NCBI GenBank assembly: GCA_963701965.1
Contig: OY969695.1
Coordinates: forward strand, 480,001 to 544,000
Reading direction: 5' to 3'
Length of the DNA stretch: 64,000 bases
Source of the DNA: an uncultured Gemmatimonadales bacterium
Lineage (GTDB): Bacteria > Gemmatimonadota > Gemmatimonadetes > Gemmatimonadales > Gemmatimonadaceae
In this document: positions 4,801-25,296 of the stretch, in pieces
Layout: the number at the start of each line of letters is the position of its first letter
How positions within the stretch are numbered: position 1 is the stretch's first letter
Notes under the pieces: model-generated
Told to the model about the DNA's origin: nothing
The model's database searches: none
The model's input: the letters and a program-made list of their open reading frames with translations, nothing else
Position numbers and translations under genes: made by a program

Positions 4801-4942
4801 GACGGTGACCGATCCGGATCACGCCGTGTGGCACGCGGGCGACGGGGCGCGGGCGTCGGATATCGCCTACATCACGTATCGCGTGCCGATGCGCGTCGCG
4901 GTCCACGGCTCGACCATGATCCCACCCGACGTCGCGCCATGA
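1844..4942 (+). CDS. large conserved hypothetical protein (1032 aa), gene 2 of DUF6603 operon
   Basis: Long ORF with an ATGA overlap on the upstream stop and GGAGG RBS. Motifs EPNYFPLIE, PWRFTP, YYQWRFQTG-GDF-SLV, FIEAYMVG-NHE, DQRGTYFRQFWD and LLRRYPNT. Internal hydrophobic hairpin; no signal peptide. Confidence 0.85.
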   Translation: MSNGNGNGDSELGYHTFLPWLRRGIGIEISRTDDDPTPAPRATLDIGVTIGPGPLSTGATNVSLALYGPGNVATLDPRTVIRTWPRPNVYQSEPNYFPLIELQPADVPWRFTPARRSAADRLRPWIVLIVLADGEYASAAGSITVNSAATLPALDQSWAWSHVQITGEQSVDAATVLDLLDNDPDRILARLLCPRQLAPDTAYTAFLVPALERARLAGLSQNVPDTIDGLAPAWTSGESNVQLPVYYQWRFQTGDDGDFASLVERVQPRPMPATVGSRPMDVSAAGYMLPPAAPAAPLQALNVEAALRALDSASTTWATGDRTAWTNALATLLDTPATLLASPGAERAVAPPLYGQWYAATNQLGAAADPTRWFPDLNADPRLRVAAGLGTVAIQENQQQYLAGAWAQVGAIRSINARLKAAQLARETAVSLYQRHLTVLSDSTLIAVTAPVHPRILASPTTVAAVLANSPLRAGLLRPAWRRLMRPGGQLGRRIANAGRLAGPTVVERVNLGALRVAPPPTTPAQLTTLTTATQHTVPSWATPGWMALLSAFSHLSLIELIVALLLAVILFLVGGGAIAMVLGIIVVAGQLLGSQLMASAPIADLQRRMALHNGTLTSSQIQGAPARPAFVPQEYNGAVPTPAPVAAIGAADSASGARFRSAAAAMFAEVQTAPAAGPVLVTADLASIRSKVVAALDPKLTVAVSYLQRLTLATGIVWQPKDPIEPIMAAPSFPDPMYKPLLAVSQDWLLPGLDQVPADTISLVQTNEPFIEAYMVGVNHEMTRTLLFNEYPIDQRGTYFRQFWDSSTAIPPGQPEPESLKDLTPINTWAAASLLGTHSSRATPPGGSYLVLLLRAELLRRYPNTIVYASHAKWNPDGFTRSVDDTNQSKPLFSGTLGAGVGFWGFALTADQVRGADKPPGDPGWFFILQEAPTEPRLGLEPAGTTFGGPVASWPGMAWSDLAASPASLASVQFIDLSAALPNTSTVTDPDHAVWHAGDGARASDIAYITYRVPMRVAVHGSTMIPPDVAP

Positions 4943-7900
4943 GCCCTGTCGAGCTCTCCAACGTCCAGCAGGCGCGGACGGCGCACGCCAGCGCGCAGGC
5001 CGCGGTCGACGCGGCGCGCGCGCGCGTCACGGCGGCAGCCGCCGGCTCCGACGCCTATGCGCAGGCCACCCGGACGTTGGGCGCCGCCCAAGCGACGCTG
5101 GCCAGCGCGCGCAACACGCTCAATCAGACGATCGGTCAACAACTCTCGACGAACAACCCCCCGGGAGACGTCCAACGGCTGGACGCCGACCATCCGATCG
5201 TGTTGTTTCCCGTGCGCGTCGAGACGCGATTTTCATCGGCGCAGTCGGCGTTGCTCATTCGGGTGTATCCCGACGAGATCCTGGCGAACAGCTTCGAGCC
5301 AGAGTTGACCGCCGATGAGCTGGCGTGTGGCCAACTGTACTGGACCGAAGCCGCGGGCACGGTGGGACCGAACAATGCCTGGCGTCACCTGTTGGGGACC
5401 TACCCGTCGCCGCGTGCGGCGTGGATCGTGCTGCAGACGAATCCGGCGAACCCGGCGCCACCGCTTCGCGCGACGTCGTGGACGAAGCCCGCGGTGGCTC
5501 CGCTGTTGCCGGACCGCTGGATCGCGGTCGCGTATCGGGGAGGCGCCGAGATCGCCCGCGCGTGGAGCAGCCCGGTTCTCGAACCGCTGCCACTCACCAT
5601 CGCACCAGACACTCCGGCGGCGTCGTTGGTCGACATCTCCGGCGCCCTCAATTTGGGCGTCGACTATGACCCGGCGGTGCTCTGGACGGTCGACTACCCG
5701 ACCGCCGTCGCGGCCGGTATGGCGTTCGCCCTGCCGCTGCAATCGGCCGACTTCACCGCCGGGATCGACCGACTGCTGGTGCTCGGGGTCAAAACCACGA
5801 TCGCGCCCGCGGACGCCGCCACGGCGATCCGCTCCCTGATCGACGGTCATCACTATACGCGGGGGATCGCGTTCGTGCCGCAGGGCACGCCGACGCACGA
5901 TTCGCGCGAGGTGCCGTCGGGCTATCCGCCGCCGGACCCTAACGGGGCGATCAGCTTCGCCGTGGAAGAAGGACCGGGCTTGGCGACGCCCGACGGCGAT
6001 GGCGTCCTCTGGTCGCGCGCGCTTGGGCTGGCCGATGATACGGTCGCCCACATCGCCGGTGCCGACCGGACGGAGCAAGCGTCGGCCGCCGCGATGAACC
6101 GGGCGCTCTTCCCGGCGACGTGGGAGTACTTTCTGGAGACGATGATGGCGCCGATCGTGAGTGAAGGCACCATCGACGCCACGCGCGAGTACTTCGCGAA
6201 CCGGGTGCGTGCCCGGGGGCACTTTCCGAATTTTCGCATCGGGAACGTGCCGTATGGACTGCTTCCCGTGTCGTCACTCGCCCTATGGAAAGCGATACCG
6301 ACCCGACAACCGGGCGCATCGCCGATCACGAGCGTGTTGCCCGGGATCCTGCGCGCCGCGCAGCCGTTCTGGTCGGCGCAGATCGGCGCGGCCCCGCACT
6401 TGGGCCGGACGAACGACGGCGAAGGCGACGTGCTGGACGCCTTGAGTATGGACGCGAGTGCGCGCACGCTGCGTTTCCGACGGCTGTTGGGCGCCGAGAC
6501 GCTCGCCAACCTGGTGGGGCTGCTGGGCGTCGACTGGGCGCTGGTGACGCTCTTCGGCGATATGACCGCGGCGAACCTGCTGCGCAGCATGGGGTGGTCG
6601 GGCGCCAACCCCCGGGCGTTGACGAACGTGTTCGCGGCCAATGCGCTGCCATTTCGCTTTCCGTTCGTCGCCACGACGTTGTCGGAGACCGACCCGCTCG
6701 CGCCGAACTTCATCACGTGGGTGCGCACGGCGTCGATCGACGATCTGCGCGCCGGCGCGACGCCGTTCCCTGCCCCATCGGTGCTGCTGTTCCGGCTCCT
6801 GAGCTACGCCGCGCTCACCGAGTCTTGGCGAGAAGGCCGGCGCATTCTCCTCGCGGCGGGCGCGGCGGTGGACGATCTCGCGGTCCGCGAGTTGACCGGT
6901 ATCGTCGCGGGCACCGAGACGCGTCCCACCCCGTGGGATTATCTCGGGGCACCGGTGTCATCGGTCACGCACGCGTTGACGCTGGCGCATTTTCTGTCGC
7001 CGATTCAGCCGGGCGAGGCTACGCGGACGCTGCCGCCGGCGATCGTCGCCTATCGCGAGGCGCTGGGCGTGCTCGAGACACTCCCGACCGCCGAGCTGGA
7101 TCGCTTCTGCACGGAGACGTTGGATCTGGCGTCGAACCGCATCGATGCGTGGACCTCGGCGCTCTACGCCGAGCGCTTGGACACGATGCGCTCGACCACG
7201 CCGACGGGCAGTCATGTGGGCGCGTACGCGTGGGTCGAGTCGCTCAAGCCGGGCGGACAGCCGGCCATCCGGCTGAGCGACCGGCGTGCGGCGCTCGACT
7301 CGACCGGCGGATACATCCAAGCGCCGTCCATGGCGCACGCCGCCGCGGCCGCCGTGCTCCGCAACGCGTATCTCAGTTACGCGGGGGACAGCGGCGCGAA
7401 CCCTTACGCGGTCGACCTCTCGTCCGCCCGCGTGCGTGCCGCGCGGTTTGTGCTGGAAGCCGTCGCCGAGGGACAGCAAGTCGGCGCGGTGTTCGGCTAT
7501 CAGATCGAGAGCGGTCTCCATGCCCGTCTAGCGGATGCGCTCATCGACCCGCTGCGCAACGTGTATCCGCTCGTGGCCAACAAAGCCTTCGACTCCGGGG
7601 AGCAAGCCGAAGCGATCGCGGCGCGCAACGTCGTCGACGGACTGGCCTTGCGCACCGCCTGGAAAGCGAACGCGATCCCGTGGGGCACGGCAGGCCTTCC
7701 GGCCGCGGCGTCCGGCGCATTGTACGATGCCCTCATCGCCGAGCTGGGAGCGCTGGACACGACCGTCGACTCCGTCGCCAATGTCCTGCTGGCCGACTCC
7801 GTGTATCAGCTCGTGCAGGGTAGCACGGCGGGAGCATCGGCGAGCCTGGACACGATGGCGCAGGGCGCGCGCCCACCGGACCCCGGCGTTGTGCATCCCG

Positions 7901-9489
7901 TGACTGGCGGCGTCAATGTCACCCATCGCGTGGCGATCGTCATCGGCGACCCCGCCGTCGCCATCAGCACGGGTTGGCCGTCGACCGCCACGCCGCGCGC
8001 TGCCGCCGAGCCCCGGCTCGACGCGTGGGTGGGCAGTCTTCTGGGCGATCCGGGCAACGTGCGCTGCATCGTGCGGGTGACCGACAACTCCGGCGCCTCG
8101 CCGGTCGTGACCGACCACACGGTGACGATGGACCAACTCGGCTTGCGGCCGATCGACATGCTGGCGCTGGCCGCATCGGTCACGGATCAACCCGCGGCGT
8201 CGGAGTTGGACCGGCGGTGCATCACCGCGGCGCTCGGCGACACGCCGGTGAGCGGGACGATCTCCGTCATCTATGCCCGTGATCCGGGCTGGGATCGCGA
8301 CACCGTCCGCGCGGTGCCCGAGCTCCTGCAGGCGGCGCAAGCGCTGCTCCGACTCATCGGTGGCGCGCGGACCATGGCGTGGCAGGATCTCGTGCGCGCG
8401 GCGGACGTCTCGACGACGACGCTGGGAGTCTTGGCGGTCGCGGATGCGGAAGCGCGCGCGACCGCCGCCGAGGCCGGGTTGGCGGCGATCAAGACCCAGT
8501 TGGACGCTGCCGTAGCGCCCGGCGCCACGCGCGCGGCGCTCGTAGCGGCGCTGCGTGCGACGGCGGCGTACGGCGTCACCGGCGCGTACCCCGTACCGGG
8601 CGCGGGCGCGAACGAAGGGGACGTGGCGACGACGCTGATCGACCAGGCGCAGCGGACGCAGGCCGCGGTCAATGCGCGCATTGCCGCGGCCACAGCGGCG
8701 CATCTTCCCCCGACGCCGCCCCCGACGGATGCCGCGCGCGTGGCCGCGGCGGTGGAGATCGCACAGCAGATCTTCGGGCAGGGATTTGTGTTGGTGACGG
8801 GGTTTGCCCCGTCGCCTGCTGCGACGGTGGGGTCGGCGTTGGCGGCGGGGCCGGCATTGGTGGGCGACCCACACGCGCCGATCAAGTGGCTGCAGCAGGC
8901 GAGCCGGGTGCGAACGGCACTTGGCCGTTGGCGCCGCGTCCGATTGCTCACCGAGGCGATGGGTGCGCCGCCCGTCGCGTTGGACATCGCGCAGTTCCCC
9001 GTGGTCGCCGGCGCGCCGCCGCCGCACTGGGTGGGCTTGCCCTTCGCGTCCGAAGCCGATCGCGTGAGCGGACGCCTGTCGGTGGCGCTGGCGCGGCCCT
9101 CGACGCCGGCGGCGACCGCCACGTGGTACGGGCTCACCATCGATGAGTGGGTGGAGCTCATCCCGAACGCGACGGAGATGACCGGTCTCGCGTTCCACTA
9201 CGACGTCGCGAAAGCCGAAGCGCCGCACGCCGTGTTGGTCGCCGTACCACCGGCGTCCGTGGAGCAGTGGGATTTCAATACGCTGGCCACGATCGTCGGC
9301 GAGACGCTGGATCTGGCCAAGATGCGGGGGGTGGACGGCCGTCTTCTCGGTAGCCTGTCACAGCTCATTCCCGCGATCTACTTCACCGCCAACGCCAATG
9401 ACGACACGGTGACGTTCCCATGGCGGGGAACGCTCCGCGCCGAGACGACGATCACGGCGGCGACGATCGCCGCGGGAGCCACCGGGTGA
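4939..9489 (+). CDS. very large conserved hypothetical protein (~1516 aa), gene 3 of DUF6603 operon
   Basis: ATG at 4939 overlaps the upstream TGA. Ala-rich N-terminal helix. Motifs PIVLFPVRVETRF, LLIRVYPD, LPDRW, RIG-PYGLLPV, ETLDL-RIDAW, GGYIQAPS, EPRLDAW and IDEWVELIP...GLAFHYD. Confidence 0.85.
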   Translation: MSPVELSNVQQARTAHASAQAAVDAARARVTAAAAGSDAYAQATRTLGAAQATLASARNTLNQTIGQQLSTNNPPGDVQRLDADHPIVLFPVRVETRFSSAQSALLIRVYPDEILANSFEPELTADELACGQLYWTEAAGTVGPNNAWRHLLGTYPSPRAAWIVLQTNPANPAPPLRATSWTKPAVAPLLPDRWIAVAYRGGAEIARAWSSPVLEPLPLTIAPDTPAASLVDISGALNLGVDYDPAVLWTVDYPTAVAAGMAFALPLQSADFTAGIDRLLVLGVKTTIAPADAATAIRSLIDGHHYTRGIAFVPQGTPTHDSREVPSGYPPPDPNGAISFAVEEGPGLATPDGDGVLWSRALGLADDTVAHIAGADRTEQASAAAMNRALFPATWEYFLETMMAPIVSEGTIDATREYFANRVRARGHFPNFRIGNVPYGLLPVSSLALWKAIPTRQPGASPITSVLPGILRAAQPFWSAQIGAAPHLGRTNDGEGDVLDALSMDASARTLRFRRLLGAETLANLVGLLGVDWALVTLFGDMTAANLLRSMGWSGANPRALTNVFAANALPFRFPFVATTLSETDPLAPNFITWVRTASIDDLRAGATPFPAPSVLLFRLLSYAALTESWREGRRILLAAGAAVDDLAVRELTGIVAGTETRPTPWDYLGAPVSSVTHALTLAHFLSPIQPGEATRTLPPAIVAYREALGVLETLPTAELDRFCTETLDLASNRIDAWTSALYAERLDTMRSTTPTGSHVGAYAWVESLKPGGQPAIRLSDRRAALDSTGGYIQAPSMAHAAAAAVLRNAYLSYAGDSGANPYAVDLSSARVRAARFVLEAVAEGQQVGAVFGYQIESGLHARLADALIDPLRNVYPLVANKAFDSGEQAEAIAARNVVDGLALRTAWKANAIPWGTAGLPAAASGALYDALIAELGALDTTVDSVANVLLADSVYQLVQGSTAGASASLDTMAQGARPPDPGVVHPVTGGVNVTHRVAIVIGDPAVAISTGWPSTATPRAAAEPRLDAWVGSLLGDPGNVRCIVRVTDNSGASPVVTDHTVTMDQLGLRPIDMLALAASVTDQPAASELDRRCITAALGDTPVSGTISVIYARDPGWDRDTVRAVPELLQAAQALLRLIGGARTMAWQDLVRAADVSTTTLGVLAVADAEARATAAEAGLAAIKTQLDAAVAPGATRAALVAALRATAAYGVTGAYPVPGAGANEGDVATTLIDQAQRTQAAVNARIAAATAAHLPPTPPPTDAARVAAAVEIAQQIFGQGFVLVTGFAPSPAATVGSALAAGPALVGDPHAPIKWLQQASRVRTALGRWRRVRLLTEAMGAPPVALDIAQFPVVAGAPPPHWVGLPFASEADRVSGRLSVALARPSTPAATATWYGLTIDEWVELIPNATEMTGLAFHYDVAKAEAPHAVLVAVPPASVEQWDFNTLATIVGETLDLAKMRGVDGRLLGSLSQLIPAIYFTANANDDTVTFPWRGTLRAETTITAATIAAGATG

Positions 9490-11216
9490 CCCTCTCCGTG
9501 CGAGCCGGCCCCACGTTCGTGTTGCGTCCGCCATCGATCACCTATTGGGTGCGCGGAGAGCCCGATGCCCGCGGCGAGACATTTGTCGATGCGATGTGCG
9601 CGCGGCTCCGCGATCCGCTGTGGACGCTGACGCGGCAGTGGCAGCTTGGCGAGTTCCTGGGAGGCGACGCCGGTTCGCCAGCCTTCGTGGAAATGGCGGA
9701 GCGTTTCGGCGCGCTGACCGCGTGGCAGGCCACGGGACAGGCGGTGGAGCCGCTGGGCGGCGGGCCGCTCGAGTACGAGAGCGAGCGCGAGCCATTGGAC
9801 GCGGATCTGGCGACGGCGATCGAGCTCGGGCAGACCGCCGAGCGGTTGCTCACCGAGCGCGGGGTGGCCGCGCTCATTCCGGCATTTCGGACAGCGTATT
9901 CGGTGAGCGCGACACCCGTCGACGCCAGCGACCCGTCCGACGTCACGTTTCGCAGTGTGTGCGCGTCGCGCGCGATCAATGGGGTGGCGTTGGCCGCGGC
10001 GGCCCAAGCGGCGCAGCCCGCTCTGCCGGCGACGCCGGCGATCCCGACGGCGGACCAACCGCAGGCGCTGGCCGCGATCAACGACTTTCTGGCCTGGGTC
10101 GCGGCGACCGTCGGGACGCTGGGCACTAGCGATCCCGGTGCGTGGCAACCGGCGACGCTCGGGTACGGGTTGGGGATCACGGGAACCGCGCCCGACGGCA
10201 GCGCGATCACTCTGCAAGCCAGCCCGGCCGACGATGGGCTGCTGGAGTGGTCGGCGCTGGACCTCACGCCTCCAACGGCGCCTGGATCCGCCGCGGCGAA
10301 GGCGCGGGGCGTGATGCCGGCCCACCTGCGATTCCCGGGCATGCCGAACGCCCGCTTCTGGGATTTCGAGACGTCGGGGTCGGATATTGGGTCGGTCGTG
10401 CCCGACAAGCGCGATCTGGCGCGGCTGGCGGTGATGGATCTCATGCTGGTGCACGGGAACGACTGGTTCGTGATCCCGGTCTCGCTGGCGCCCGGCGCGC
10501 TATACGAGGTCACGCAGCTCTTGGTGCACGATGTCTTTGGCGTGATCACGCGGGTCACGCGTGCGGATCAAGAGGCGATCTCGGCGGGCGCGTGGGCGGC
10601 GTTCACCACCAACATCGTTGGCCAGACCGCGCGCGCGCCGTTTTTCGTCTTTCCGCCGAGCGTTGGGGTGGCGATGCAGCGCGGGGCGCCGGTGGAGGAG
10701 GTGCAGTTCGCGCGCGACGAGCAGGCGAACATGGTGTGGGCGCTGGAGCTCGCGACCCAGAACGCGATCGGCGAGGGGTGGTCGGGTCACGAGCGCGATA
10801 TCGCGCGGAACGGCGGGGCGGCACCGCGGCCGCCCGCGCCCCAAGCGGCCGCGATCCCGCTCGTGTACGACATCCAGACTCGTGTTCCGGAGTACTGGAT
10901 TCCGTTTCTGCCGGCGCGAGTCAATGCGGTGACCGGCGCCGCGGCCCTCGAACGCGCCGCGATGCTGCGGGCCGATGGGACGCCGATTGAACCTGTGGGA
11001 CGCATCCTCCGGCCGTCGAGCATCACCGCCGGGTCGCCGTACCGCGTGCCGGAGGAGGAGGTCGCGCGCACCGGCGTCCGCATCGTGCGGTCGGTGTGTC
11101 GGAGCCGCTGGGTCGACGGCACGACCTGGCTGTGGGGCATGCGGCAGAGCGGCCCGTCGCGCGGCGAGGCGAACAGCGCGCTCCGGTTCGACGTCGCTCA
11201 GCCGAACAGCTCGTGA
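9486..11216 (+). CDS. conserved hypothetical protein (~576 aa), gene 4 of DUF6603 operon
   Basis: GTG at 9486 overlaps the upstream TGA. Motifs RDPLW-L-RQWQLGEF-G-DAGSP, FPGMPN-RFWDFE, GNDWFVIP, EEV-F-RDE-ANMVW, VPEYWIPF and EEEV-RTG...RW-DG...LRFD. Confidence 0.85.
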   Translation: MTLSVRAGPTFVLRPPSITYWVRGEPDARGETFVDAMCARLRDPLWTLTRQWQLGEFLGGDAGSPAFVEMAERFGALTAWQATGQAVEPLGGGPLEYESEREPLDADLATAIELGQTAERLLTERGVAALIPAFRTAYSVSATPVDASDPSDVTFRSVCASRAINGVALAAAAQAAQPALPATPAIPTADQPQALAAINDFLAWVAATVGTLGTSDPGAWQPATLGYGLGITGTAPDGSAITLQASPADDGLLEWSALDLTPPTAPGSAAAKARGVMPAHLRFPGMPNARFWDFETSGSDIGSVVPDKRDLARLAVMDLMLVHGNDWFVIPVSLAPGALYEVTQLLVHDVFGVITRVTRADQEAISAGAWAAFTTNIVGQTARAPFFVFPPSVGVAMQRGAPVEEVQFARDEQANMVWALELATQNAIGEGWSGHERDIARNGGAAPRPPAPQAAAIPLVYDIQTRVPEYWIPFLPARVNAVTGAAALERAAMLRADGTPIEPVGRILRPSSITAGSPYRVPEEEVARTGVRIVRSVCRSRWVDGTTWLWGMRQSGPSRGEANSALRFDVAQPNSS

Positions 11217-12265
11217 CGCCTGGCGGCCGTTGGGGAACCCGCGTTGGCCTGGCGTGGGCGGTCGCGGCGTCCGCGGCGGGAGCTCAGGCGCCGCCCTCGC
11301 CCGGCCTCGACACGGGCGCGCTCCGGGCCGCGGACGACCCGACGCATACGATGCGGGCGGTGCTGGTCCAGCGGCACGGCCGGCTGGTCGCCGAGCAGTA
11401 CTTCAACGGCGAGACGGCGGACTCCCTGCACGACATCCGCTCGGCCACCAAGACGATCACGTCGATGCTGATCGGGATCGCGATCGACCAAGGGCGCATC
11501 GCGAGCGTGCATAGCCGTCTCGCGACGCTCCTGTCGGTCCCGCAGGGTTGGCAGCCCGTGACGCTGGCCAATGTCTTGTCGATGAGCTCGGGGCTCGATG
11601 CGGACGATAACACCGCCGACTCGCCCGGCAACGAAAATCGCATGGACGGGCACGGCGATTGGCTGGCGTTCGCCCGGACGATTCCATTGGCGCGTCCGCC
11701 CGGCACCCGTTGGGCTTACGCCTCGCTCAACTACATGCTGCTCGGCGCCATACTTACCGAGGCCACGCACCAACCAGTCCCAGCATTCGCCCAGGCGTCG
11801 CTCTTCGATCCGCTGGGCATCCGCGACGTGCGCTGGACGGCCGATGCAGCCGGTCACACGTCGACGCAGGGCAACTTCCGCATCCGCGCCCGCGACCTGG
11901 TCGCGCTCGGACAGCTCGCGCTCGATCACGGCGTCTGGCACGGCCGCCGCGTGATCTCACGCGCGTGGTTGGACTCGGCCACCGTCCCCCGATTCCCCAC
12001 ACCGTTCGCGGGGTACGACGGGTACGGCTATGGGTGGTGGACCAACACGATGCCCGTCGCCGACCGCCGGATCTTCTACTACTTCATGTCGGGCAACGGC
12101 GGCCAGAAGGTCTACGTGGTGCCGTCCTTGGATCTGGTCGTCGTCGTGACGAGCGCCGGCTACAATCAGCGCTCGGCGCAGGACCGCTCGGAGCGGATCC
12201 TTCGCGACTATTCTGGGTGCGGTGCGCTAGGGATCGACTTACGCTGCTACGTCTACGTAGGCTGA
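11213..12265 (+). CDS. serine hydrolase, beta-lactamase/AmpC-like family
   Basis: SxxK (IRSATKT), WAY-S-N-LLG, YGYGWW and GNGGQ-VYVVP-LDLVVV. GTGA coupling to the upstream gene; signal-like N-terminus. Confidence 0.85.
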   Translation: MTPGGRWGTRVGLAWAVAASAAGAQAPPSPGLDTGALRAADDPTHTMRAVLVQRHGRLVAEQYFNGETADSLHDIRSATKTITSMLIGIAIDQGRIASVHSRLATLLSVPQGWQPVTLANVLSMSSGLDADDNTADSPGNENRMDGHGDWLAFARTIPLARPPGTRWAYASLNYMLLGAILTEATHQPVPAFAQASLFDPLGIRDVRWTADAAGHTSTQGNFRIRARDLVALGQLALDHGVWHGRRVISRAWLDSATVPRFPTPFAGYDGYGYGWWTNTMPVADRRIFYYFMSGNGGQKVYVVPSLDLVVVVTSAGYNQRSAQDRSERILRDYSGCGALGIDLRCYVYVG

Positions 12266-12454
12266 CGTCGAGACCGGACGCGGGATCGGCTGTCCGGCTT
12301 CCTGCAGTCCCTCGATGTGGAATGAAATGGCGTCACGCATGCTCTGCTCCACCTCGGCGCGATTGTGTCCCGTCGCAATGCAACCCGGCAGGTCGGGCGA
12401 ATACGCCGAGTAACCCGTTGGGGTTTCCTCGATCACAATCAGGTAGCGGCTCAT
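12239..12454 (-). CDS. hicB: type II TA antitoxin, HicB family
   Basis: MSRYLIVIEETPTGYSAYSPDLPGCIATG...EGL-E-G-PIP matches the short HicB signature. Confidence 0.9.
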   Translation of the reverse strand: MSRYLIVIEETPTGYSAYSPDLPGCIATGHNRAEVEQSMRDAISFHIEGLQEAGQPIPRPVSTSAYVDVAA

Positions 12455-12456
12455 AG

Positions 12457-12590
12457 TCACAGGCTTGCCTGCCTCAGCACGCTGTTCAACGCCCCGAGCT
12501 AGATGATCGTCTTCGCGGCCAGCGACTGTTATCGCTCCCGATCTCGTTAGGGGCTTGACCTGCCGGTGACAGTCGCGCGTGCGAGCGGCC
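12457..12590 (-). pseudogene. hicA: degenerate HicA toxin remnant
   Basis: CHRQVK-TRSGAITVAG-DDHLARG in one frame, then LNSVLRQASL* in a shifted frame ending 2 nt before the hicB ATG. No N-terminus. Confidence 0.7.
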
Positions 12591-12596
12591 GTGCTC

Positions 12597-12794
12597 TTAG
12601 GCGGCCCGAAAGTCCATCTTCCTGGCGTCAGTGACGCGACGGGAGGCGTCGAGGATTTCCAGACTGACCAGGTTGCCCGCCTCGTCATAGTCCAGAATGA
12701 TCCCGGGCTTGTCCTCGTCGCTCTCAGCGATCGGCCGACCCTCTTGCAAGAGTACCGATAATGTGTCGGTCCGTGAGTCGTAGGTCACTTTCAT
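12597..12794 (-). CDS. DUF2283 domain protein (putative antitoxin)
   Basis: MKVTYD-TD-L...ESDE-PGIILDYDE-GNLV-LEILDAS. Confidence 0.85.
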   Translation of the reverse strand: MKVTYDSRTDTLSVLLQEGRPIAESDEDKPGIILDYDEAGNLVSLEILDASRRVTDARKMDFRAA

Positions 12795-13048
12795 GTGCCC
12801 CCCTTCCAGTATTTCGCGATCTTGCTGCTACGGTATACCGTAACGACTTCCGCGGGTTGGCGCAGAACATCGACGAACACCCGAACGATATATCGACTCG
12901 GCGGGTCGCCGAAGTCAACCAGAGACTGGAGGACATCCCTGCCCGGCCGATGCGGGTGTCGCTCTCCGGGATCGCGAAGTACATCGCCAACCGTGTCGGC
13001 CGAAATCCCTCGTTGTGCCATCTCCTCCACAGCGTGCGGAGTAAGCAA
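12791..13048 (-). CDS. DUF4258 domain protein (putative RelE-like toxin)
   Basis: LTPHAVEEMAQRGIS...RVFVD...VVTVY-SSKIAKYW; 4-nt overlap with DUF2283. The true start may be ~13074 with a frameshift. Confidence 0.8.
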   Translation of the reverse strand: MLTPHAVEEMAQRGISADTVGDVLRDPGERHPHRPGRDVLQSLVDFGDPPSRYIVRVFVDVLRQPAEVVTVYRSSKIAKYWKGGT

Positions 13049-13265
13049 TACGACACGATCGGCTCGCCGGACACACAGCCAATTTACGTGGCCGTAGTGT
13101 GCCCGCCACGTGCGATTGCAACCGTCAGCTCGTTGGCCCTAGCGTAGCGAATTCTCGCGCGACACTGGCCAACACGGACAGACACGAACGTCCCGCGACC
13201 CGACGGCTATCGATCCCACCCAGGAGCGCCGGCCGACGTCGGCGTACCATCTCGCTCACAACCAA

Positions 13266-13352
13266 CGGAGGGGGCGGGATTCGAACCCGCGAGACCCTTG
13301 CGAGCCCACACGCTTTCCAGGCGTGCGCCTTAAACCACTCGGCCACCCCTCC
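13266..13352 (-). tRNA. tRNA-Ser (anticodon GGA)
   Basis: GGAGGGGTGGCCGAGTGGTTTAAGGCGCACGCCT-GGA-AAGCGTG, long variable arm, GGTTCGAATCC. CCA not encoded. Confidence 0.97.
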
Positions 13353-13385
13353 CTGGGACACGCGCAGGAGCGCGTGGACCGACAA

Positions 13386-13475
13386 CGGATGGGGTGAGAT
13401 TCGAACTCACGATACCGGGTTCACCGGTATGCCGGTTTTCGAGACCGGTGCCTTCAACCACTCGGCCACCCATCC
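13386..13475 (-). tRNA. tRNA-Ser (anticodon CGA)
   Basis: GGATGGGTGGCCGAGTGGTTGAAGGCACCGGTCT-CGA-AAACCGG, long variable arm, GTTCGAATC. CCA not encoded. Confidence 0.97.
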
Positions 13476-13526
13476 AAGTACTACGGAGCGCGAAACTTAG
13501 ACGATTCAGCCCCTGCCCCACAACCC
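13449..13526. repeat. direct repeat copy 1 (tRNA-Ser 5' end + upstream promoter), att-like
   Basis: 78 bp, 3 mismatches to 20692-20769 by manual alignment. Confidence 0.9.
13494..13523 (-). promoter_or_regulatory. putative sigma70 promoter of the tRNA-Ser pair
   Basis: TTGTGG-N18-TAAGTT followed by a GC-rich discriminator, ~18 nt upstream of the mature tRNA. Confidence 0.4.
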
Positions 13527-13765
13527 AGCGTGGGGATCGCTGGTCGCGCTCCCTCTTTAATTTACGAGATGACGGATCTCGCTTCACACCCAGGTCACTT
13601 AGGATGGACCTCCCGCGGGGCCATCCTGCTTCATGCTAACTGGCCGATCTATCCCGCCGAGCACGGGCCGGAGACGGCACTATTGACTCTCGGTCGTGCG
13701 CCTGAGCGAGGTATTCGCTTGGGTTGATTCGATGGTACCGAAGTCGTAAGATCAACCCGTTTCTT

Positions 13766-14224
13766 CTAAGGCGACATAGGCCAGGGCGGCACGAACTCGA
13801 ACGGTACGATGCGACGTAGCCGCCGGAAATCACTCTCGTTCTCGGTGACGACCGTCACACCGGCCTCTCGGCAAGAGAGTGCGATCATGATGTCGTTCAC
13901 GGTGTGCTTCGGAACACGACGGAGTTCAAGACCATCTTCGGCCACCAATGTGGCGAGCACTCGGCCAGAGTCTCGCCACACGGCAAAACTGGGCGTGATC
14001 ATTCGACCGCGTCGTTGAAACGGTTCGACGACAGTGCGATCAAATTGCTTCACGCCACCGGCGCTGCTGAGTCCCGCGCGTAACTCTTGAACGACTACCG
14101 CGCTGAGAAACTCGTACGGCGCGAAAACCGCGTGAAAATGCTTCAGCTGCTCAGCGCCCGCACGATCGCGATACCCGCGAATGAACAGGTTCGTGTCAAG
14201 CGCGTACTTCGTTGGAACTGACAA
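13766..14224 (-). CDS. vapC: PIN-domain toxin (VapC family)
   Basis: YALDTN, SAVVVQEL-AG, NDIMIA, VVTEN-SDF acidic PIN residues. Confidence 0.9.
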   Translation of the reverse strand: MSVPTKYALDTNLFIRGYRDRAGAEQLKHFHAVFAPYEFLSAVVVQELRAGLSSAGGVKQFDRTVVEPFQRRGRMITPSFAVWRDSGRVLATLVAEDGLELRRVPKHTVNDIMIALSCREAGVTVVTENESDFRRLRRIVPFEFVPPWPMSP

Positions 14225-14745: not shown

Positions 14746-15420
14746 CTAGAGGATCGAGATGGCATCCAGTATCGCGTGCGCGATCATGTTGCCACGGAGG
14801 CCCTTGCGGAGCCACGCGGCGAGGCCGAGCACTACGCCCCACACGCCGATCAGTATCACGTTCTTCCAGCCTTGATACGTGTGGAAGCCGGCGAAGATAA
14901 TGGCCTGTCCGATGATGCCTGCGCTCGTGAGGCCAGTCCATGCGGTGAGCTGCTGCTGGAGATAGCCACGAAAGATCGTCTCCTCGCAGACGCCGGCGGT
15001 GATCGCCATAAGGATCCAGCCCGCAACCTCGGCGCCGTTGTTGGGGATCATGCCGCGTGTCGATACCCAATCGGAGGGGCCCATCAATAGTATGATGAGC
15101 GGGGTGACGCCGAGGAGCACGGCGGCTAACACCAATGACGTCAGAATATCCCACGGAAGCGACCGTGGCTCTCGCAACACGCGAGCGATGGAGGCATTGA
15201 ACACGGCGTCCGATCCCCAGAGCGTGAGTGCGAACGTCGCCCATTCGAACAGCATGACGATCGCGTACATCGGCAGGTGGGGCAGTCGAGAGTCGGCCGA
15301 GGCCAGCCGAAGATAGACGGCCAGCGTCGAGAGCGTCGCGAGGAGCAGCAGCACCGCCAGCGTGTGCCACGCCGGCGCGATCGGTCGCGGACGCTCAGAA
15401 AGCGAAAACGATAAGCTCAT
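14746..15420 (-). CDS. CPBP/CAAX (Abi) family intramembrane protease
   Basis: EETIFRGY, FAGFH-YQG and AHAILD motifs; multiple TM helices. Confidence 0.9.
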   Translation of the reverse strand: MSLSFSLSERPRPIAPAWHTLAVLLLLATLSTLAVYLRLASADSRLPHLPMYAIVMLFEWATFALTLWGSDAVFNASIARVLREPRSLPWDILTSLVLAAVLLGVTPLIILLMGPSDWVSTRGMIPNNGAEVAGWILMAITAGVCEETIFRGYLQQQLTAWTGLTSAGIIGQAIIFAGFHTYQGWKNVILIGVWGVVLGLAAWLRKGLRGNMIAHAILDAISIL

Positions 15421-15678: not shown

Positions 15679-18600
15679 TCACTCGGCGCGCATCGCCGAC
15701 ATCGGGTCCACGGCTGCCGCCCGCAACGACGGCAGCAGTGTGGCCAGGAGTCCCATCGCGACGAGCGCCAGCGTTGCGACCAGCCAGGTTGGCGTGTCGA
15801 GTGGACTGAGCCCGTAGAGGTTCGCCGAGAGCACGCGGGTCACGAGCGCACTGCCAACCAGCCCGAAGGCTACCCCCACCAGAATCAGGCGGAACCCGCC
15901 ATTCACGACCAAGCCGACCGTGCGGGCCGGTGTGCTCCCGAGCGCCGTTCTGATGCCCAGCTCGCGGGTGCGTTGCGCCACGACGTAGCTCAGCACGCCG
16001 TGCAATCCCGCGACGACCAACACGACCGCGATGCCGGCGAAGAGTGTGATCGACACCAGGAAAAATCGCTGGCGGCGCACACTGTCGAGAATGACGTCCT
16101 TCATCGGCATGACCCGCGTCACAGCGGCCTGGGGATCGATCGAGTGCACGGCGGCCGCGACGCTACGGTTCACGCTCAGCGGATCCCCACGCACGCGGAC
16201 CATGATGTTATAGACCGAGGAGGAGGTGTACGGAGTATAGAACTCCGGCCGCGGCTCCATGAGAGGTCCCATGTTGCGGATCGTGCTCACGACTCCGACG
16301 ATGGTCGCCAGTGAGGTGTCGTTCGCGTACCATCGCTTGCCGATCGGGTCCTCGTTGGGGAAGTCGCGCTTCACCAGCGCTTTGTTGACGACGACTACCT
16401 TCGGTGCTCCCTCCTGCACGTCCGCCTCCTGCAGCAAGCGTCCCTCGAGGAGACGCTGTTGGGTGACGGCGAAGAATCCGGGGGTGACGTCGCGCACTTC
16501 GACGACTGGGAGGCGCGTAGGGACCTCCTTTGGCCGGTTTTCGTACTGCGCACCCGTATTCATGCCCCAGCGTCGAAATGGGATCTCGGAGATGGCGCCG
16601 ACCGCGACCACGCCCGGCACGCGGCCGATCGCATTGATCGTTGGGTTCAGAAACCGTTGCACCGATGTGCCCGGTGCGTACGCGACGGGCGAGATCGCGG
16701 TCTCCATGGTCAGCACGTGAGTCGGATCGAACCCCGGGTCACGATCGAGCAGCCGCGTGAACGCCTTTATGACGAGCCCGGCAGCGATCACGAGAATGAG
16801 TGAGAGCGCGACCTCGACGACGACGAGCGTGCCGAACGCGCGCCGAGCGCTCTGGCGCACCCCGCCGCCGCGTCCGCCGCGCAGCACGTCCTGCGGATCG
16901 ACTCGTGTCCCACGCCAAGCCGGCAGCGCTCCAGCCACGACGGCCACGAGGCCAGAGAGCACGAGCGCGAAGGGGATCGCCCGGACGCCGACAAAGACAT
17001 TGGAGAGTTGTGGCAGATCCTCGGACAGGTGCACGCCGGTCGCGCGGATGCCGATCCACGCGAGGAGCACGCCGCACGTCACGCCCGCGATCGCCAGTGC
17101 GAGGCTTTCGACGAGAACCGGACGCACGACATCCCACCGGGAGGCGCCGAGTGCGGTGCGGATCGCGTACTCCTGCTGGCGATGGACGCCGCGCGCGAGG
17201 AGCAGGCAAGCGACGTTGCTCGTCGCCACGAGAAGAACCAATGAGACGGCGCCGAAGAGGAGCATCAGGGGTCCGCGGACGTGGGCGATATCGTCGGCCT
17301 GCATCGGCACGGCGCGCACCGATTCCAGCCGGAAGTCCGGGTAGATTTTGGCGATGTCGGCGAAGCGCTGAGCCAATTCGCGATCGGCATCACTGGCGGA
17401 GGTCCCCGGTGCGAGCCGGCCGAACGCGCACAGGAAGTCCGACCCGCGCGTATTGAGCTCCCTCGGTGTGAACACCAGCGGGATCCAGACATCGGCTTCG
17501 AGACGGCGGTCACCGTGGGGCAGCCGAAATGCCGGCGGGAGCACGCCGATCACGGTCCGGGAGCGGCCATCCAATTGGATCGAGCGTCCGATGAGCGTCG
17601 TGTCGCCTCCAAACCGTGTCTGCCACAGTTCGTGGCTCAGGACGACGACGGGCGCATCGGTCGCGGCGTCGGCGCTGTCGAGTAGCCGGCCATGGGATGC
17701 CGACACGCCCAACGCGGAGAACGTGTTGCCGCTCGCTCGCATGAGATTGAGACGCTCGGCGGCATCCGGCAGCGTCACCAGTCCCGATGTCTGATACACC
17801 GCCGCGAGATCACGCAGTGTGTGGACCGAGCGCCCGAGATCCACGAAGTTGGGTGCCGATATGGGGCTGGTATCGAACTTCAACGCTTTGCGATAGACGG
17901 TGACCAATTCGCGCGCGTGGGCGAACGGGAGCGGTTGGATCAGCGCCCGGTCGATGGCGCTGTAGACCGCGGTCATCGCGCCGGTGCCGAGCGCGAGGCA
18001 GATGAGCGCGTAGACGGTGACGCTCGGGCTGCGGATAAGACCGCGCAGGCCGCCACGGACGTCGGCGGCGGTGACGAACGTGCGCGGTGTGCTCAGCGCC
18101 TCGGGATCTTGAAGCACGCGCATGACATCGACCGCTGAGCGGGGACGCTGACTGGGCTCTTTGGCGAGGCACTGGAGCAGAATGCGCTCCACGCCGGGCG
18201 GTACGTCGGACCGTCGCTTGGCGATCGGCTGCGGCGCTTCGGTGAGGTGCGCCGCCATGAGCTTTCGGACCGTCGGTCCCGTGAACGGCGGGGTGCCGAC
18301 CAGCATCTCGTATCCCACGACACCGAGCGCGTATAGGTCCGTTCGCGCGTCGACATCGCTGTCGCCGGCGATCTGCTCCGGCGCCATGTACACCGGCGTG
18401 CCAATGGACGTGCCTTCGCTGGTCATCGGCGCCCGCGTCCGCGATTTCGCGATACCGAAATCGGAGAGGACGGCGGAGTGCGCCGTGAGCAGAATGTTGT
18501 CGGGCTTGATGTCGCGATGGACGACGCCGTTTTGGTGGGCGAACGCCAGGGCGCGCGCGATGTCGATCAGGATGCTCGCGGTCTCGCGGACCGACATCGG

Positions 18601-18903
18601 GCCGCGGGCGAGTCGGGTCCGGAGCGATTCGCCTTCGACATACGCCATCACGAAGTACGGCAGGCCATCGAGCTCGCCGGACCCGATCACTGGAACGATC
18701 TGTGGGTGCGACAGCTTCGCGATGAGCGCGATCTCGGCTAGGAAACGGTCGGTCGCGAGCGGGTTGGCAAGGTCCCGTGGCAGAACCTTGATGACGACCC
18801 GGCGGTCGAGTGATTCGTCGTGCGCGAGGAAGACGGCGGACATGCCGCCGCCTTCCAGTCGCCGCGTGACGCGGTAGCGTCCTTCAATCAGCTGTTCTTC
18901 CAT
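15679..18903 (-). CDS. Hanks-type Ser/Thr kinase fused to duplicated MacB/FtsX-type ABC permease (ADOP)
   Basis: N-terminal GGGMSAV, VIKVL, HRDIKPDN, DFG and GTPVYMAPEQ, then ALGTGA-TAVYS, LL-A-SNVA-LLLARG-R-E-AIR-ALGA, DPGFDP, SY-VAQRTRELGIR-ALG and DPM-AMRAE, all in one frame. Confidence 0.9.
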   Translation of the reverse strand: MEEQLIEGRYRVTRRLEGGGMSAVFLAHDESLDRRVVIKVLPRDLANPLATDRFLAEIALIAKLSHPQIVPVIGSGELDGLPYFVMAYVEGESLRTRLARGPMSVRETASILIDIARALAFAHQNGVVHRDIKPDNILLTAHSAVLSDFGIAKSRTRAPMTSEGTSIGTPVYMAPEQIAGDSDVDARTDLYALGVVGYEMLVGTPPFTGPTVRKLMAAHLTEAPQPIAKRRSDVPPGVERILLQCLAKEPSQRPRSAVDVMRVLQDPEALSTPRTFVTAADVRGGLRGLIRSPSVTVYALICLALGTGAMTAVYSAIDRALIQPLPFAHARELVTVYRKALKFDTSPISAPNFVDLGRSVHTLRDLAAVYQTSGLVTLPDAAERLNLMRASGNTFSALGVSASHGRLLDSADAATDAPVVVLSHELWQTRFGGDTTLIGRSIQLDGRSRTVIGVLPPAFRLPHGDRRLEADVWIPLVFTPRELNTRGSDFLCAFGRLAPGTSASDADRELAQRFADIAKIYPDFRLESVRAVPMQADDIAHVRGPLMLLFGAVSLVLLVATSNVACLLLARGVHRQQEYAIRTALGASRWDVVRPVLVESLALAIAGVTCGVLLAWIGIRATGVHLSEDLPQLSNVFVGVRAIPFALVLSGLVAVVAGALPAWRGTRVDPQDVLRGGRGGGVRQSARRAFGTLVVVEVALSLILVIAAGLVIKAFTRLLDRDPGFDPTHVLTMETAISPVAYAPGTSVQRFLNPTINAIGRVPGVVAVGAISEIPFRRWGMNTGAQYENRPKEVPTRLPVVEVRDVTPGFFAVTQQRLLEGRLLQEADVQEGAPKVVVVNKALVKRDFPNEDPIGKRWYANDTSLATIVGVVSTIRNMGPLMEPRPEFYTPYTSSSVYNIMVRVRGDPLSVNRSVAAAVHSIDPQAAVTRVMPMKDVILDSVRRQRFFLVSITLFAGIAVVLVVAGLHGVLSYVVAQRTRELGIRTALGSTPARTVGLVVNGGFRLILVGVAFGLVGSALVTRVLSANLYGLSPLDTPTWLVATLALVAMGLLATLLPSLRAAAVDPMSAMRAE

Positions 18904-19510
18904 GCCTGCTGAGACAACGAAGAGCTCCTAAGGGTTTAGTCGGTACGCTCCACTACCTTCGCGTCCGAGGACCGCGGAGTTTCAAGACATCCCGCATCAA
19001 TGCCGGTCCCAAACCGGCGATGCGGATCCAACATTGTAACGTCTCCGGTTTCAGTGCGCTTTGATCGCGATGGCGTGATCGACGGGGATCAGGGTGACGG
19101 TGAACGGTGTTGCCGCATCATGGGACACGAGCGGGGTGGGGCCAGCCCCTGCCCCACAACCCGCCCGAGGGTGCGCATCCCTGCCGCCGTTCGGCAAGGC
19201 CACCCACCCAAGTACCACTGCGCGCGACACTTGGACGATTCGCGCCTCGCCCCACCATTGACGCCGTGCCCCTGGACGCGCCCGTGCGAGCGTAATGCGC
19301 TGCGGCGGCGGGTCTCGTGCCGTACCAACGCGCGCGCCTGATCCCTGTAACGACGGCCGACCACTGGATTCATCGACGACGCGCGGCGACTCCGCGGCGG
19401 AGCCCGACCTCTGCACCTGGCGGCGTACGAACAGCGGGCTCGTATGCCGAACGCTGCGCCACTAAGTTTGACGAACTCCTGCGGCGTCGTTCCCGTCCTC
19501 CCTTGACATC

Positions 19511-24512: not shown

Positions 24513-24943
24513 TGGCGACGGGTGGCTTCTCTGTCGCGGCGATCGCCGCGACGGCAGTGGTGGCGGCCACGGTCATCGCCACGGTGGTCGTGACCGGCGG
24601 CCCATCGACGCAGCGCGAGATTCGCCTCGACGAGGGGCGGGCCAGGGATCTGACTCGGATCACGTCGGCAGTCAACGCCTATGCACTGCGCCACAACGTG
24701 CTTCCCACGTCGCTCGACTCAATGGTCCCCGACCATCAACTCAATGTCGTACCCAGCGACCCGATGACGCACAAGCCGTACACGTACACCACAACCGGTG
24801 TGACCACGTATCGACTCTGCGCGACGTTCCAGCGAGCCGTCGAGAAGGAAGACGACGGGATCGGTCGCTACGGGAAAGAATGGGACTATCACGGCCGCGG
24901 GCCCGCGTGCTACGATCTCCAGACGAATAAGCGCCCCCAGTAG
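24512..24943 (+). CDS. single-TM hypothetical protein with pilin/pseudopilin-like features
   Basis: TGATG coupling; N-terminal TM, GGP-QR-RLD-R-DL-I, LP-SL, DP-T-PYTY, YRLCATF, Cys pair. Confidence 0.7.
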   Translation: MATGGFSVAAIAATAVVAATVIATVVVTGGPSTQREIRLDEGRARDLTRITSAVNAYALRHNVLPTSLDSMVPDHQLNVVPSDPMTHKPYTYTTTGVTTYRLCATFQRAVEKEDDGIGRYGKEWDYHGRGPACYDLQTNKRPQ

Positions 24944-24974
24944 CGGCGAACGCGCCCAGAGCAGCGGCCGCCGA

Positions 24975-25296
24975 CTAGTCGTATCGCAACGCCTGTATGG
25001 GATCGATGCGGCTGGCGCGAATGGCCAGCACGAGGCCCGCACCCAGCGCGACCAGAGCGAGCAGGAGCGCCGACGTGGCGAAGACCACTGGGTCGGTGTT
25101 GGTAGAGCAATGCCGCGGCACAACGGCCCAGCACGAACGATCCCGGCATGCCGATCGATCCACCGATCGCCGTCATCAGGCCCACTTGGCCGAGCACCAT
25201 CCGGCGCACCCGGGCACGGTCGGCGCCGAGTGCCATGCGGACGCCGATCTCGCGGGTGCGTTGTGCCACGGAGTACGCGAGCGCGGACGCGATCAC
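24975..25296 (-). pseudogene. C-terminal fragment of ADOP/FtsX-type permease, frameshifted
   Basis: LAYSVAQRTREIGVRMALGA in one frame; DPVVF...RASRIDPIQALRYD in another. Confidence 0.8.

Follow-up and report, generated by a model that had tools for sequence, protein, structure and literature searches.

A Ser/Thr kinase fused in one reading frame to an ADOP duplicated permease: a candidate receptor kinase from an uncultured Gemmatimonadales bacterium

The window analyzed here is a 64,000-nucleotide (nt) stretch of contig OY969695.1 from an uncultured Gemmatimonadales bacterium, and all coordinates are positions in this whole stretch unless stated otherwise. Its reverse strand carries a gene predicted to encode a Hanks-type Ser/Thr kinase that continues, in the same open reading frame (ORF), into a complete duplicated permease of the ADOP family. 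We call the predicted protein P0001. Translation of the gene is uninterrupted, with no internal stop codons. The parts of the gene and the basis for each are listed below, where aa denotes amino acids, TM a transmembrane helix and pLDDT the predicted local distance difference test score of a structure model.

15679..18903 (-): whole gene for the kinase-ADOP fusion P0001, 1074 aa, stop codon included (single ORF, ATG start, Pfam, NCBIfam)
18139..18873 (-): Hanks-type Ser/Thr kinase domain, aa 11-255 (Pfam Pkinase; residues in the translation; PknB as top structure and sequence match)
18496-18519 (-): HRDIKPDN, aa 129-136 (translation)
18454-18462 (-): DFG, aa 148-150 (translation)
18376-18462 (-): activation loop to APE, aa 148-176 (translation)
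18070..18138 (-): linker from the kinase end to the first ADOP helix, aa 256-278, Ser/Thr/Pro-rich and variable in length (alignment columns 300-360; pLDDT 58-71 at aa 261-280)
15682..18069 (-): complete ADOP duplicated permease, aa 279-1074 (TIGR03434, 757.2 bits versus a cut-off of 622.3)
17953..18024 (-): TM1, aa 294-317, after an amphipathic N-terminal ADOP helix at aa 279-291 (hydrophobicity; model helices)
17284..17937 (-): first periplasmic MacB_PCD domain, about aa 323-540 (Pfam best stretch 297-512; modeled as a mixed alpha/beta block)
16918..17271 (-): TM2-TM4 of the first FtsX module, aa 545-662, including a cytoplasmic 'coupling' stretch at about aa 570-600 (Pfam FtsX 553-669; model; hydrophobicity)
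16837..16917 (-): cytoplasmic inter-repeat loop, aa 663-689, Gly/Arg-rich and disordered in the model (pLDDT below 50 at aa 677-681; 6 Lys or Arg in the 25 residues of aa 666-690)
16084..16836 (-): TM5 (aa 690-716) and second periplasmic domain (about aa 721-940) (model; hydrophobicity; clade-signature residues)
15718..16062 (-): TM6-TM8 of the second FtsX module, aa 948-1062 (second Pfam FtsX stretch; model; hydrophobicity)

The N-terminal region of P0001 matches the Pfam family Pkinase (PF00069) with an E value of 2.6e-46 and 158.6 bits, against a gathering score of 31.7. It contains the complete Hanks catalytic set: GGGMSAV (aa 18-24), K39 (in VVIKVL), E57, H129-R130-D131, N136, D148-F149-G150 and A174-P175-E176. 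It also has D189, R253 and the activation-loop residues T161/T165. Alignment of 27 fusions that are 36-83% identical to P0001 showed that all 27 keep K39, E57, H129-R130-D131, K133, N136, D148-F149-G150, T161, P175-E176, D189 and R253, and that G18 is nearly invariant. A preliminary description of this DNA had noted an intact Lys, HRDIKPDN, DFG and APE, all of which are in the translation, with their catalytic residues invariant in the 27 fusions. It had also allowed that the kinase might be inactive; the sequence gives no sign of this, the catalytic set being complete. Judging from the invariance of these residues, the kinase is maintained by selection as an enzyme, and it is apparently active.

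An AlphaFold2 model built from 27 homologues had a mean pLDDT of 83.8 and a predicted template modeling score (pTM) of 0.65, and its low confidence was limited to the activation loop (aa 157-166), the linker and the inter-repeat loop. Using Foldseek with this model we found that the kinase matches PknB kinase structures at 38-40% identity with TM-scores (target) of 0.78-0.89, and the bilobal kinase fold is present. The model for PASTA kinases, NF033483, scored 283.8 bits against a cut-off of 450 and was matched only over positions 2-266 of 563, which are its kinase part. With this score below the cut-off, no PASTA repeats were found in P0001.

The remainder of the protein is covered by the NCBIfam ADOP model from position 2 to position 803 of 803. 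Pfam places MacB_PCD in two stretches (1e-30) and FtsX in two stretches (1.3e-22), giving two MacB_PCD and FtsX modules in a single chain with eight hydrophobic segments and two periplasmic domains. In a hydrophobicity and charge analysis the short loops on the kinase side were rich in Lys and Arg (5/34, 6/25 and 4/23 residues) and the short loops on the opposite side were poor in them (1/12 and 0/8), consistent with a cytoplasmic kinase and two periplasmic domains. Foldseek matches for this part included MacB (5lil and 5gko) and Spr0695 (5xu1); the MacB equivalog model NF007826 gave 85.9 bits, far below its 966. The preliminary description had the kinase running in frame into a full duplicated permease, and this holds, with a single ORF, a linker of 23 aa and an end-to-end match to TIGR03434. 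Among homologues the length of the linker differs by about 0-30 residues. The fusions keep the FtsX 'coupling' motifs (R571, R582, A584, G586, R594 and E599 in the first module; R985, A987, L988 and G989 in the second). The permease has 39 clade-signature positions, and 18 of these are in the second periplasmic domain, among them W779, G780, N782, Y787, Q816, D847, N877 and P880.

The combination of Pkinase, MacB_PCD and FtsX was present in 29 of the 120 best database matches, the query included, with the others in 28 further clusters at 90% identity. These 29 proteins, of 815-1136 aa, were drawn from ENA, JGI, NCBI and Logan. Four other species genomes of the phylum also contain the fusion: G255 (1117 aa), G084 (1136 aa), G383 and G197 (1124 aa, of a different family). 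This number is an undercount because, in the searches of 400 genomes of the phylum that yielded it, only five or two candidates per genome were scored; the 'any match' tallies of the same searches are not informative on fusions. No fusion was seen in G157, one of the 400, with two to five candidates scored per genome. Two metagenome contigs, L094 and L095, contain collinear orthologues that are 83% identical to P0001. The junction, at about 18060-18120, consists of the linker and the first ADOP helix (aa 256-291) and is collinear with homologues of 73-83% identity. The source genome is a single contig of 5.12 Mb, and the G+C content at third codon positions is 0.82 in both the kinase half and the ADOP half of the gene, with codon-position G+C uniform along its length. 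Because the same architecture occurs in independent assemblies, we conclude that the one-ORF fusion is real and not an assembly artefact. The domain-architecture search is one that the preliminary description had called for, and the possibility it raised of a fusion unique to this assembly is contradicted by the independent assemblies.

A broader sample gave two forms of the fusion. Among the 150 best representatives at 50% identity, 19 were kinase-ADOP fusions, and Pfam confirmed all 18 that were scanned. In one form, that of P0001, the kinase is at the very N-terminus and the protein is 1067-1145 aa long. The longer form has about 85 extra N-terminal residues, so that the kinase begins at about aa 85-96. 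It accounts for 13 of the 19 fused representatives (1124-1211 aa; the 12 complete ones 1181-1211 aa), and 12 N-termini share a segment resembling a helix-turn-helix (HTH), 'SQNHWA..GLSRGHWS..VNG'. The fused clusters come from Gemmatimonadaceae, Gemmatimonadales and Gemmatimonadota, with one cluster from Vicinamibacteria in a different phylum, Acidobacteriota. The kinase-ADOP design recurs in many soil bacteria. In the databases these proteins are named 'ADOP family duplicated permease' or 'ABC transporter permease' with no mention of the kinase. We found no description of a kinase-ADOP or kinase-FtsX fusion in the literature covered, which lay outside subscription-only papers and supplements; in the accessible part of PMC4489315 both Pfam names occur, in unrelated examples.

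A scan of the genome contigs with the fusion alignment, for which the patterns chosen were kinase motifs, returned 76 loci, mostly ordinary kinases, and no new fusions; the four ORFs in it that matched both parts are loci already known from the 400-genome search. We rejected two candidates for degenerate or remnant fusions. One, a 1129-aa ADOP ORF in G269, has about 320 N-terminal aa without a kinase, and this ORF has most likely been called too long in DNA of high G+C. The other, a paralogue in the same genome as P0001 (C1:4191912-4194428), matches from residue 241 onward, which is only the linker and the first helix.

In a tree of kinase domains, 26 of 29 fusions of P0001's form made up one clade, with the abundant Pkinase-TPR family as its sister. 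A second clade consisted of the HTH form together with P0223 and a third of G197 with P0124, and these clades are well supported. An approximately unbiased (AU) test rejected a single clade of fused kinases (p = 0.0005). In the tree of ADOP parts, 28 of 32 fusions of P0001's form fell in one well-supported clade that also holds seven unfused ADOPs and two of the HTH form. The remaining fusions were scattered, well-supported branches forced at least 6-8 changes between the fused and unfused states, and one clade of fused ADOPs was rejected by the AU test (p = 1.5e-74). In two proteins, P0086 and P0138, a kinase of P0001's clade is joined to an ADOP module that branches in another part of the ADOP tree. 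These trees indicate that at least three kinase lineages have been fused to ADOPs and that the fused ADOPs are not one clade; the link between the two is therefore recurrent. They are consistent with kinases and ADOPs having been joined, and their modules swapped, several times.

The genome that encodes P0001 has 31 full-length ADOP genes above the family cut-off, 30 of them unfused. It has 42 kinase ORFs and 62 ADOP-like ORFs, and 15679..18903 is the only ORF that matches both. The preliminary description had remarked on the lack of an adjacent ATP-binding cassette (ABC) ATPase, and indeed the nearest ABC_tran match to the fusion gene is 25.8 kb away and there is none inside the ORF. This is the norm of the family in this genome, where a search within 5 kb found no ABC_tran match for 29 of the 31 full-length ADOPs. 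Therefore, the absence is not a gap and leaves no ATPase slot to be filled. The scan of 15 neighbouring ORFs (4.8-28.4 kb) found no ATPase, adaptor (MacA/HlyD), other periplasmic partner, PadR, FHA or PP2C gene, and no histidine-kinase or ABC domain was found in the ORF or in these neighbours. Elsewhere the genome has nine FHA-domain matches and three PP2C matches. It encodes eight MacB/LolD-like ATPases, six beside half-size FtsX permeases and two orphans (at genome positions 1217386 and 1338005). We considered the orphans as ATPases shared by the ADOPs and set the idea aside because the evidence was too weak.

A PadR gene lies directly upstream of 10 of the 31 full-length ADOPs, and PadR-ADOP pairs look like a standard unit of the ADOP gene family in this genome; there is no PadR gene near the fusion. 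By eye, 13 of the 15 PadR matches above the cut-off lie just upstream of a match to the ADOP model, 10 of these full-length and three partial. At one locus of the same genome (G000:C1:4741669-4747413; L174 669-6416) genes for a 709-aa Ser/Thr kinase, a 109-aa PadR protein and an ADOP are codirectional, with a second ADOP gene convergent downstream. This locus resembles a 'split' counterpart of the fused forms.

What might such a protein do? In the Pkinase-TPR sister family, a single hydrophobic segment follows immediately on the kinase in 10 of the 11 members sampled, with TPR repeats after it, an arrangement classic for receptor kinases. By comparison with this layout, the ADOP of P0001 would occupy the slot of a TM helix and an outside sensor domain. 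ADOPs are also accompanied by regulators, namely PadR genes, the HTH-like domain and independently recruited kinases. Taken together, the receptor-type layout, the regulators near ADOPs and the signature residues in the second periplasmic domain lead us to read P0001 as a receptor Ser/Thr kinase, in which an ADOP without an ATPase carries the cytoplasmic kinase at its N-terminus and would serve as the extracytoplasmic sensor. Topology and the analogy with the kinase-TM-TPR family support this reading, and we hold it with belief and doubt about evenly balanced. It keeps part of what the preliminary description proposed, a one-component receptor kinase with the kinase in the ATPase's place: the receptor layout and the position N-terminal to TM1 stand, while a functional replacement of the ATPase does not.

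The mechanism we propose starts at the two periplasmic domains, on which a ligand or some condition of the cell envelope would act. The second of these would be the likelier site of the stimulus because most of the clade-specific conserved residues are there. The stimulus would alter the conformation or the self-association of the eight-TM module. By a conformational change passed inward, or by stimulus-dependent self-association, kinase domains would then be brought together, or one released, for trans-autophosphorylation of the activation loop at the invariant T161 and at T165/S166. Once active, the kinase would phosphorylate cytoplasmic targets whose genes lie elsewhere; the FHA and PP2C matches mean that the usual partners of Hanks-kinase signaling exist in this genome. 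The 'mechanotransmission' fold of MacB would thus run from outside to inside, with the kinase reporting on the permease and not powering it.

Several points weigh against a receptor kinase of this kind. The proposed function is deduced only from the architecture of the protein. A single ADOP chain forms a pseudo-dimer with one kinase per molecule, so activation by dimerization would need one ADOP to associate with another. The linker is variable and of low confidence in the model, which suits a loose tether better than a rigid conformational coupling. Of the 39 clade-signature positions, 38 are largely common to unfused sister ADOPs (present in at least three of six), and only one, in the coupling region, separates fused proteins from their unfused sisters. 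The permease therefore has no obvious adaptation to the kinase, and the sequences reveal no fusion-specific cytoplasmic surface. The PknB N-lobe dimer interface includes residues that we take to be R10, L33 and D76, and the PDB titles of the PknB matches name L33 and D76 mutants. In the PknB alignment P0001 keeps R9 and L32, but D76, presumably part of that interface, aligns with G74. The fusion gene has no neighbour in common with its orthologues in the four genomes or even with the 83%-identical ones (L094 and L095), and therefore no partner can be named. The trees were made with FastTree or with quick IQ-TREE runs lacking a mixture model, and the groups used in the AU tests, although defined by architecture, were tested after the first tree had been seen. 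A prediction of the complex between the kinase (aa 1-272) and the first ADOP half only (aa 279-690) scored 0.00 against a mark of 0.32, which speaks neither for docking nor against it.

The information could instead flow from the cytoplasm to the permease. The kinase would then be a built-in regulator that phosphorylates the ADOP loops, the juxtamembrane linker or a docked partner, an arrangement we regard as rather unlikely yet worth serious attention. Phosphorylation would switch an envelope activity of the ADOP (export, extraction or mechanical work) on or off, which is doubtful to the same degree. There are Ser and Thr residues in the linker (aa 262-282) and in the inter-repeat loop, and the short tether of 23 aa holds the active site beside the cytoplasmic face of the permease, a face whose conserved 'coupling' motifs suggest that it still contacts something. 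A precedent exists in Mycobacterium tuberculosis, where PknF phosphorylates the ABC exporter Rv1747. However, no Ser or Thr of the linker or of the cytoplasmic loops is among the invariant columns of the 27 fusions, unfused sister ADOPs of about 50% identity apparently work without a kinase, and the HTH-like domain of the second fusion class points to an output towards the cytoplasm or the DNA.

Another, improbable explanation is that the ADOP is a mere membrane anchor, with a kinase that is constitutive or controlled from the cytoplasm and a permease whose role is independent of it. The flexible, length-variable linker and the permease without a fusion-specific surface fit this explanation. 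Yet a single TM helix suffices as an anchor, as in the Pkinase-TPR family. That at least three independent kinase lineages have kept an ADOP of 800 aa speaks for a functional link, as do the main-clade kinases of P0086 and P0138 on other ADOP lineages.

A strong form of the preliminary description's suggestion, in which the kinase would replace the ABC ATPase in function and cycle the permease as a nucleotide-driven motor, is very hard to sustain. The kinase is where the ATPase of MacB is, cytoplasmic and N-terminal to TM1, and the surroundings are ATPase-free for 25.8 kb. But ATPase absence is a trait of the family (29 of 31 ADOPs), the linker is variable and modeled with low confidence, and only one of the 39 signature positions, that in the coupling region, is fusion-specific. 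In addition, type VII ABC systems use two ATPase domains, whereas the pseudo-dimer has one kinase. Finally, an assembly chimera or a recent non-functional accident, which the position of the gene near two tRNA genes and toxin-antitoxin genes in a lower-G+C stretch might suggest, can be practically discounted given the many independent assemblies with the same fusion and conserved catalytic residues, the uniform codon-position G+C and the single-contig genome.

The sequence just outside the fusion gene contains one further feature:

18910..19037 (-): block of about 130 nt directly upstream of the start codon (nucleotide comparison with L094; possible promoter or leader)

This block is 77.5% identical over 129 nt to the region upstream of the fusion gene on L094, a degree of conservation about equal to that of the coding sequence, and it is missing from L095, the second 83%-identical orthologue. 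It is possible that it contains a promoter or leader. A 10-nt inverted repeat (19011-19020 / 19042-19051) has one arm overlapped by the block. A promoter and terminator scan gave counts at the level of shuffled sequence.

On the downstream side, 258 bp from the fusion and on the same strand, is a gene for an Rce1-like/CPBP intramembrane protease (14746-15420, -). A gene of this kind adjoins none of the six other fused genes examined (G255, G084, G383, G197, L094 and L095). Upstream of the fusion is a divergent gene without a family, followed at greater distance by toxin-antitoxin genes, two tRNA-Ser genes and various hydrolase genes. At 12239-14224 and 13266-13476, the tRNA-Ser genes (anticodons GGA and CGA) have a HicB-like antitoxin ORF and a PIN-domain ORF on their flanks. 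With a G+C of 0.57-0.62 versus 0.67 for the genome, this stretch beside the fusion gene is a possible integration hotspot or island. At a distance of about 6 kb from the fusion, a 128-aa ORF (24910-25296, -) has a partial FtsX match (Pfam positions 15-80), and ADOP model positions 697-766 match the genome at 505081-505290, at this same ORF. It looks like a remnant of another ADOP gene. Two adjacent ORFs, 4828-9489 (+, 1553 aa) and 9420-11216 (+, 598 aa), matched no Pfam family at an E value of 0.001.

The other fused genes have surroundings of their own. On L095, a metagenome contig of 290 kb, 36 bp separate the orthologue from a divergent PadR-ADOP-ADOP operon (1838-6961, -, and 6998-10210, +). 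L094 and L095 both have, downstream of the fused gene, a gene for a multicopper oxidase with an RskA_C-like N-terminal part. At the G197 locus (L093, 6014-8473, +), the kinase-ADOP gene is directly preceded by a gene for an 819-aa protein that has a LanC-like domain and by a 139-aa ORF.

To our knowledge, no function has been assigned to ADOPs and the literature on them is sparse; in the collection searched, the phrase 'duplicated orphan permease' occurs in just two papers. Few membrane-protein families have expanded as much in Gemmatimonadota and Acidobacteriota, as the 31 full-length copies in this genome illustrate. The covalent and recurrent attachment of a kinase gives an experimental handle on them because autophosphorylation is easily read out and could reveal which ligands or envelope states affect the permease. 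Should P0001 prove to be such a sensor, this would extend the Bce-type idea to Ser/Thr kinases, to Gram-negative soil phyla and to an ATPase-free form, and database names such as 'ABC transporter permease' that omit the kinase would need correction. We suggest, tentatively, that ADOPs in general may be envelope sensors and not transporters, onto which output modules have repeatedly been plugged (Hanks kinases at least three times, the HTH-kinase and PadR partners). On that broader and still speculative supposition ADOPs would make up a large and little-noticed class in which the MacB 'mechanotransmission' fold runs from outside to inside. P0001 might then be a single-chain receptor kinase of this class, and its autophosphorylation would give, for the first time, a direct view of what an ADOP senses.

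Compared with known systems, P0001 most resembles in its kinase part the receptor kinases PknB, Stk1 and StkP. It shares with them an N-terminal cytoplasmic kinase at 38-40% identity with the same fold, catalytic residues and activation-loop Thr, and then a juxtamembrane linker that leads to the membrane and outside parts. It differs in having no PASTA repeats, in having a duplicated permease of 800 aa and eight TM helices in place of a TM helix and a soluble sensor, and in the Gly at the position aligned with D76 of PknB, a residue that we take to belong to the dimer interface. With the type VII systems MacB, LolCDE and FtsEX it shares the four-TM FtsX module, the large periplasmic MacB_PCD domain and, as in MacB, a cytoplasmic domain N-terminal to TM1. 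Unlike them, P0001 has no fused or nearby ABC ATPase and no adaptor among the scanned neighbours, its module is duplicated in one chain, and the direction of signaling that we propose would be reversed. In the BceAB-BceRS systems of Firmicutes, as the accessible text of PMC5985334 presents them, a MacB-like permease gives sensory input to a kinase that is unable to sense alone; the kinase is a separate histidine kinase and active BceA ATPase is required. On that account the resemblance to P0001 would be a functional one only, the permease serving in principle as the sensory input of the kinase, whereas the P0001 kinase is a Ser/Thr kinase, is covalently fused and has no ATPase at hand.

The permease part of P0001 is a full member of the ADOP family (TIGR03434), and the protein differs from other members by its N-terminal kinase and by having no PadR gene nearby. 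The HTH-kinase-ADOP fusions likewise have a kinase joined to an ADOP; P0001 is without their N-terminal HTH-like domain, and its kinase is of a different kinase clade. With PknF and Rv1747 it shares a Hanks kinase functionally tied to a membrane transporter, but those are separate proteins, and Rv1747 comes with an ATPase and FHA domains of its own and has another permease fold. By every applicable sequence and fold test, including those made on the predicted structure, P0001 belongs to the Hanks kinases and to the ADOP family. It falls outside the PASTA kinases, and the lack of an ATPase, an adaptor and a histidine kinase means that it is neither a complete MacB-type transporter nor a Bce module. 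Receptor Ser/Thr kinases are already known; what is likely new here is a receptor Ser/Thr kinase with an ADOP as a new sensor module.

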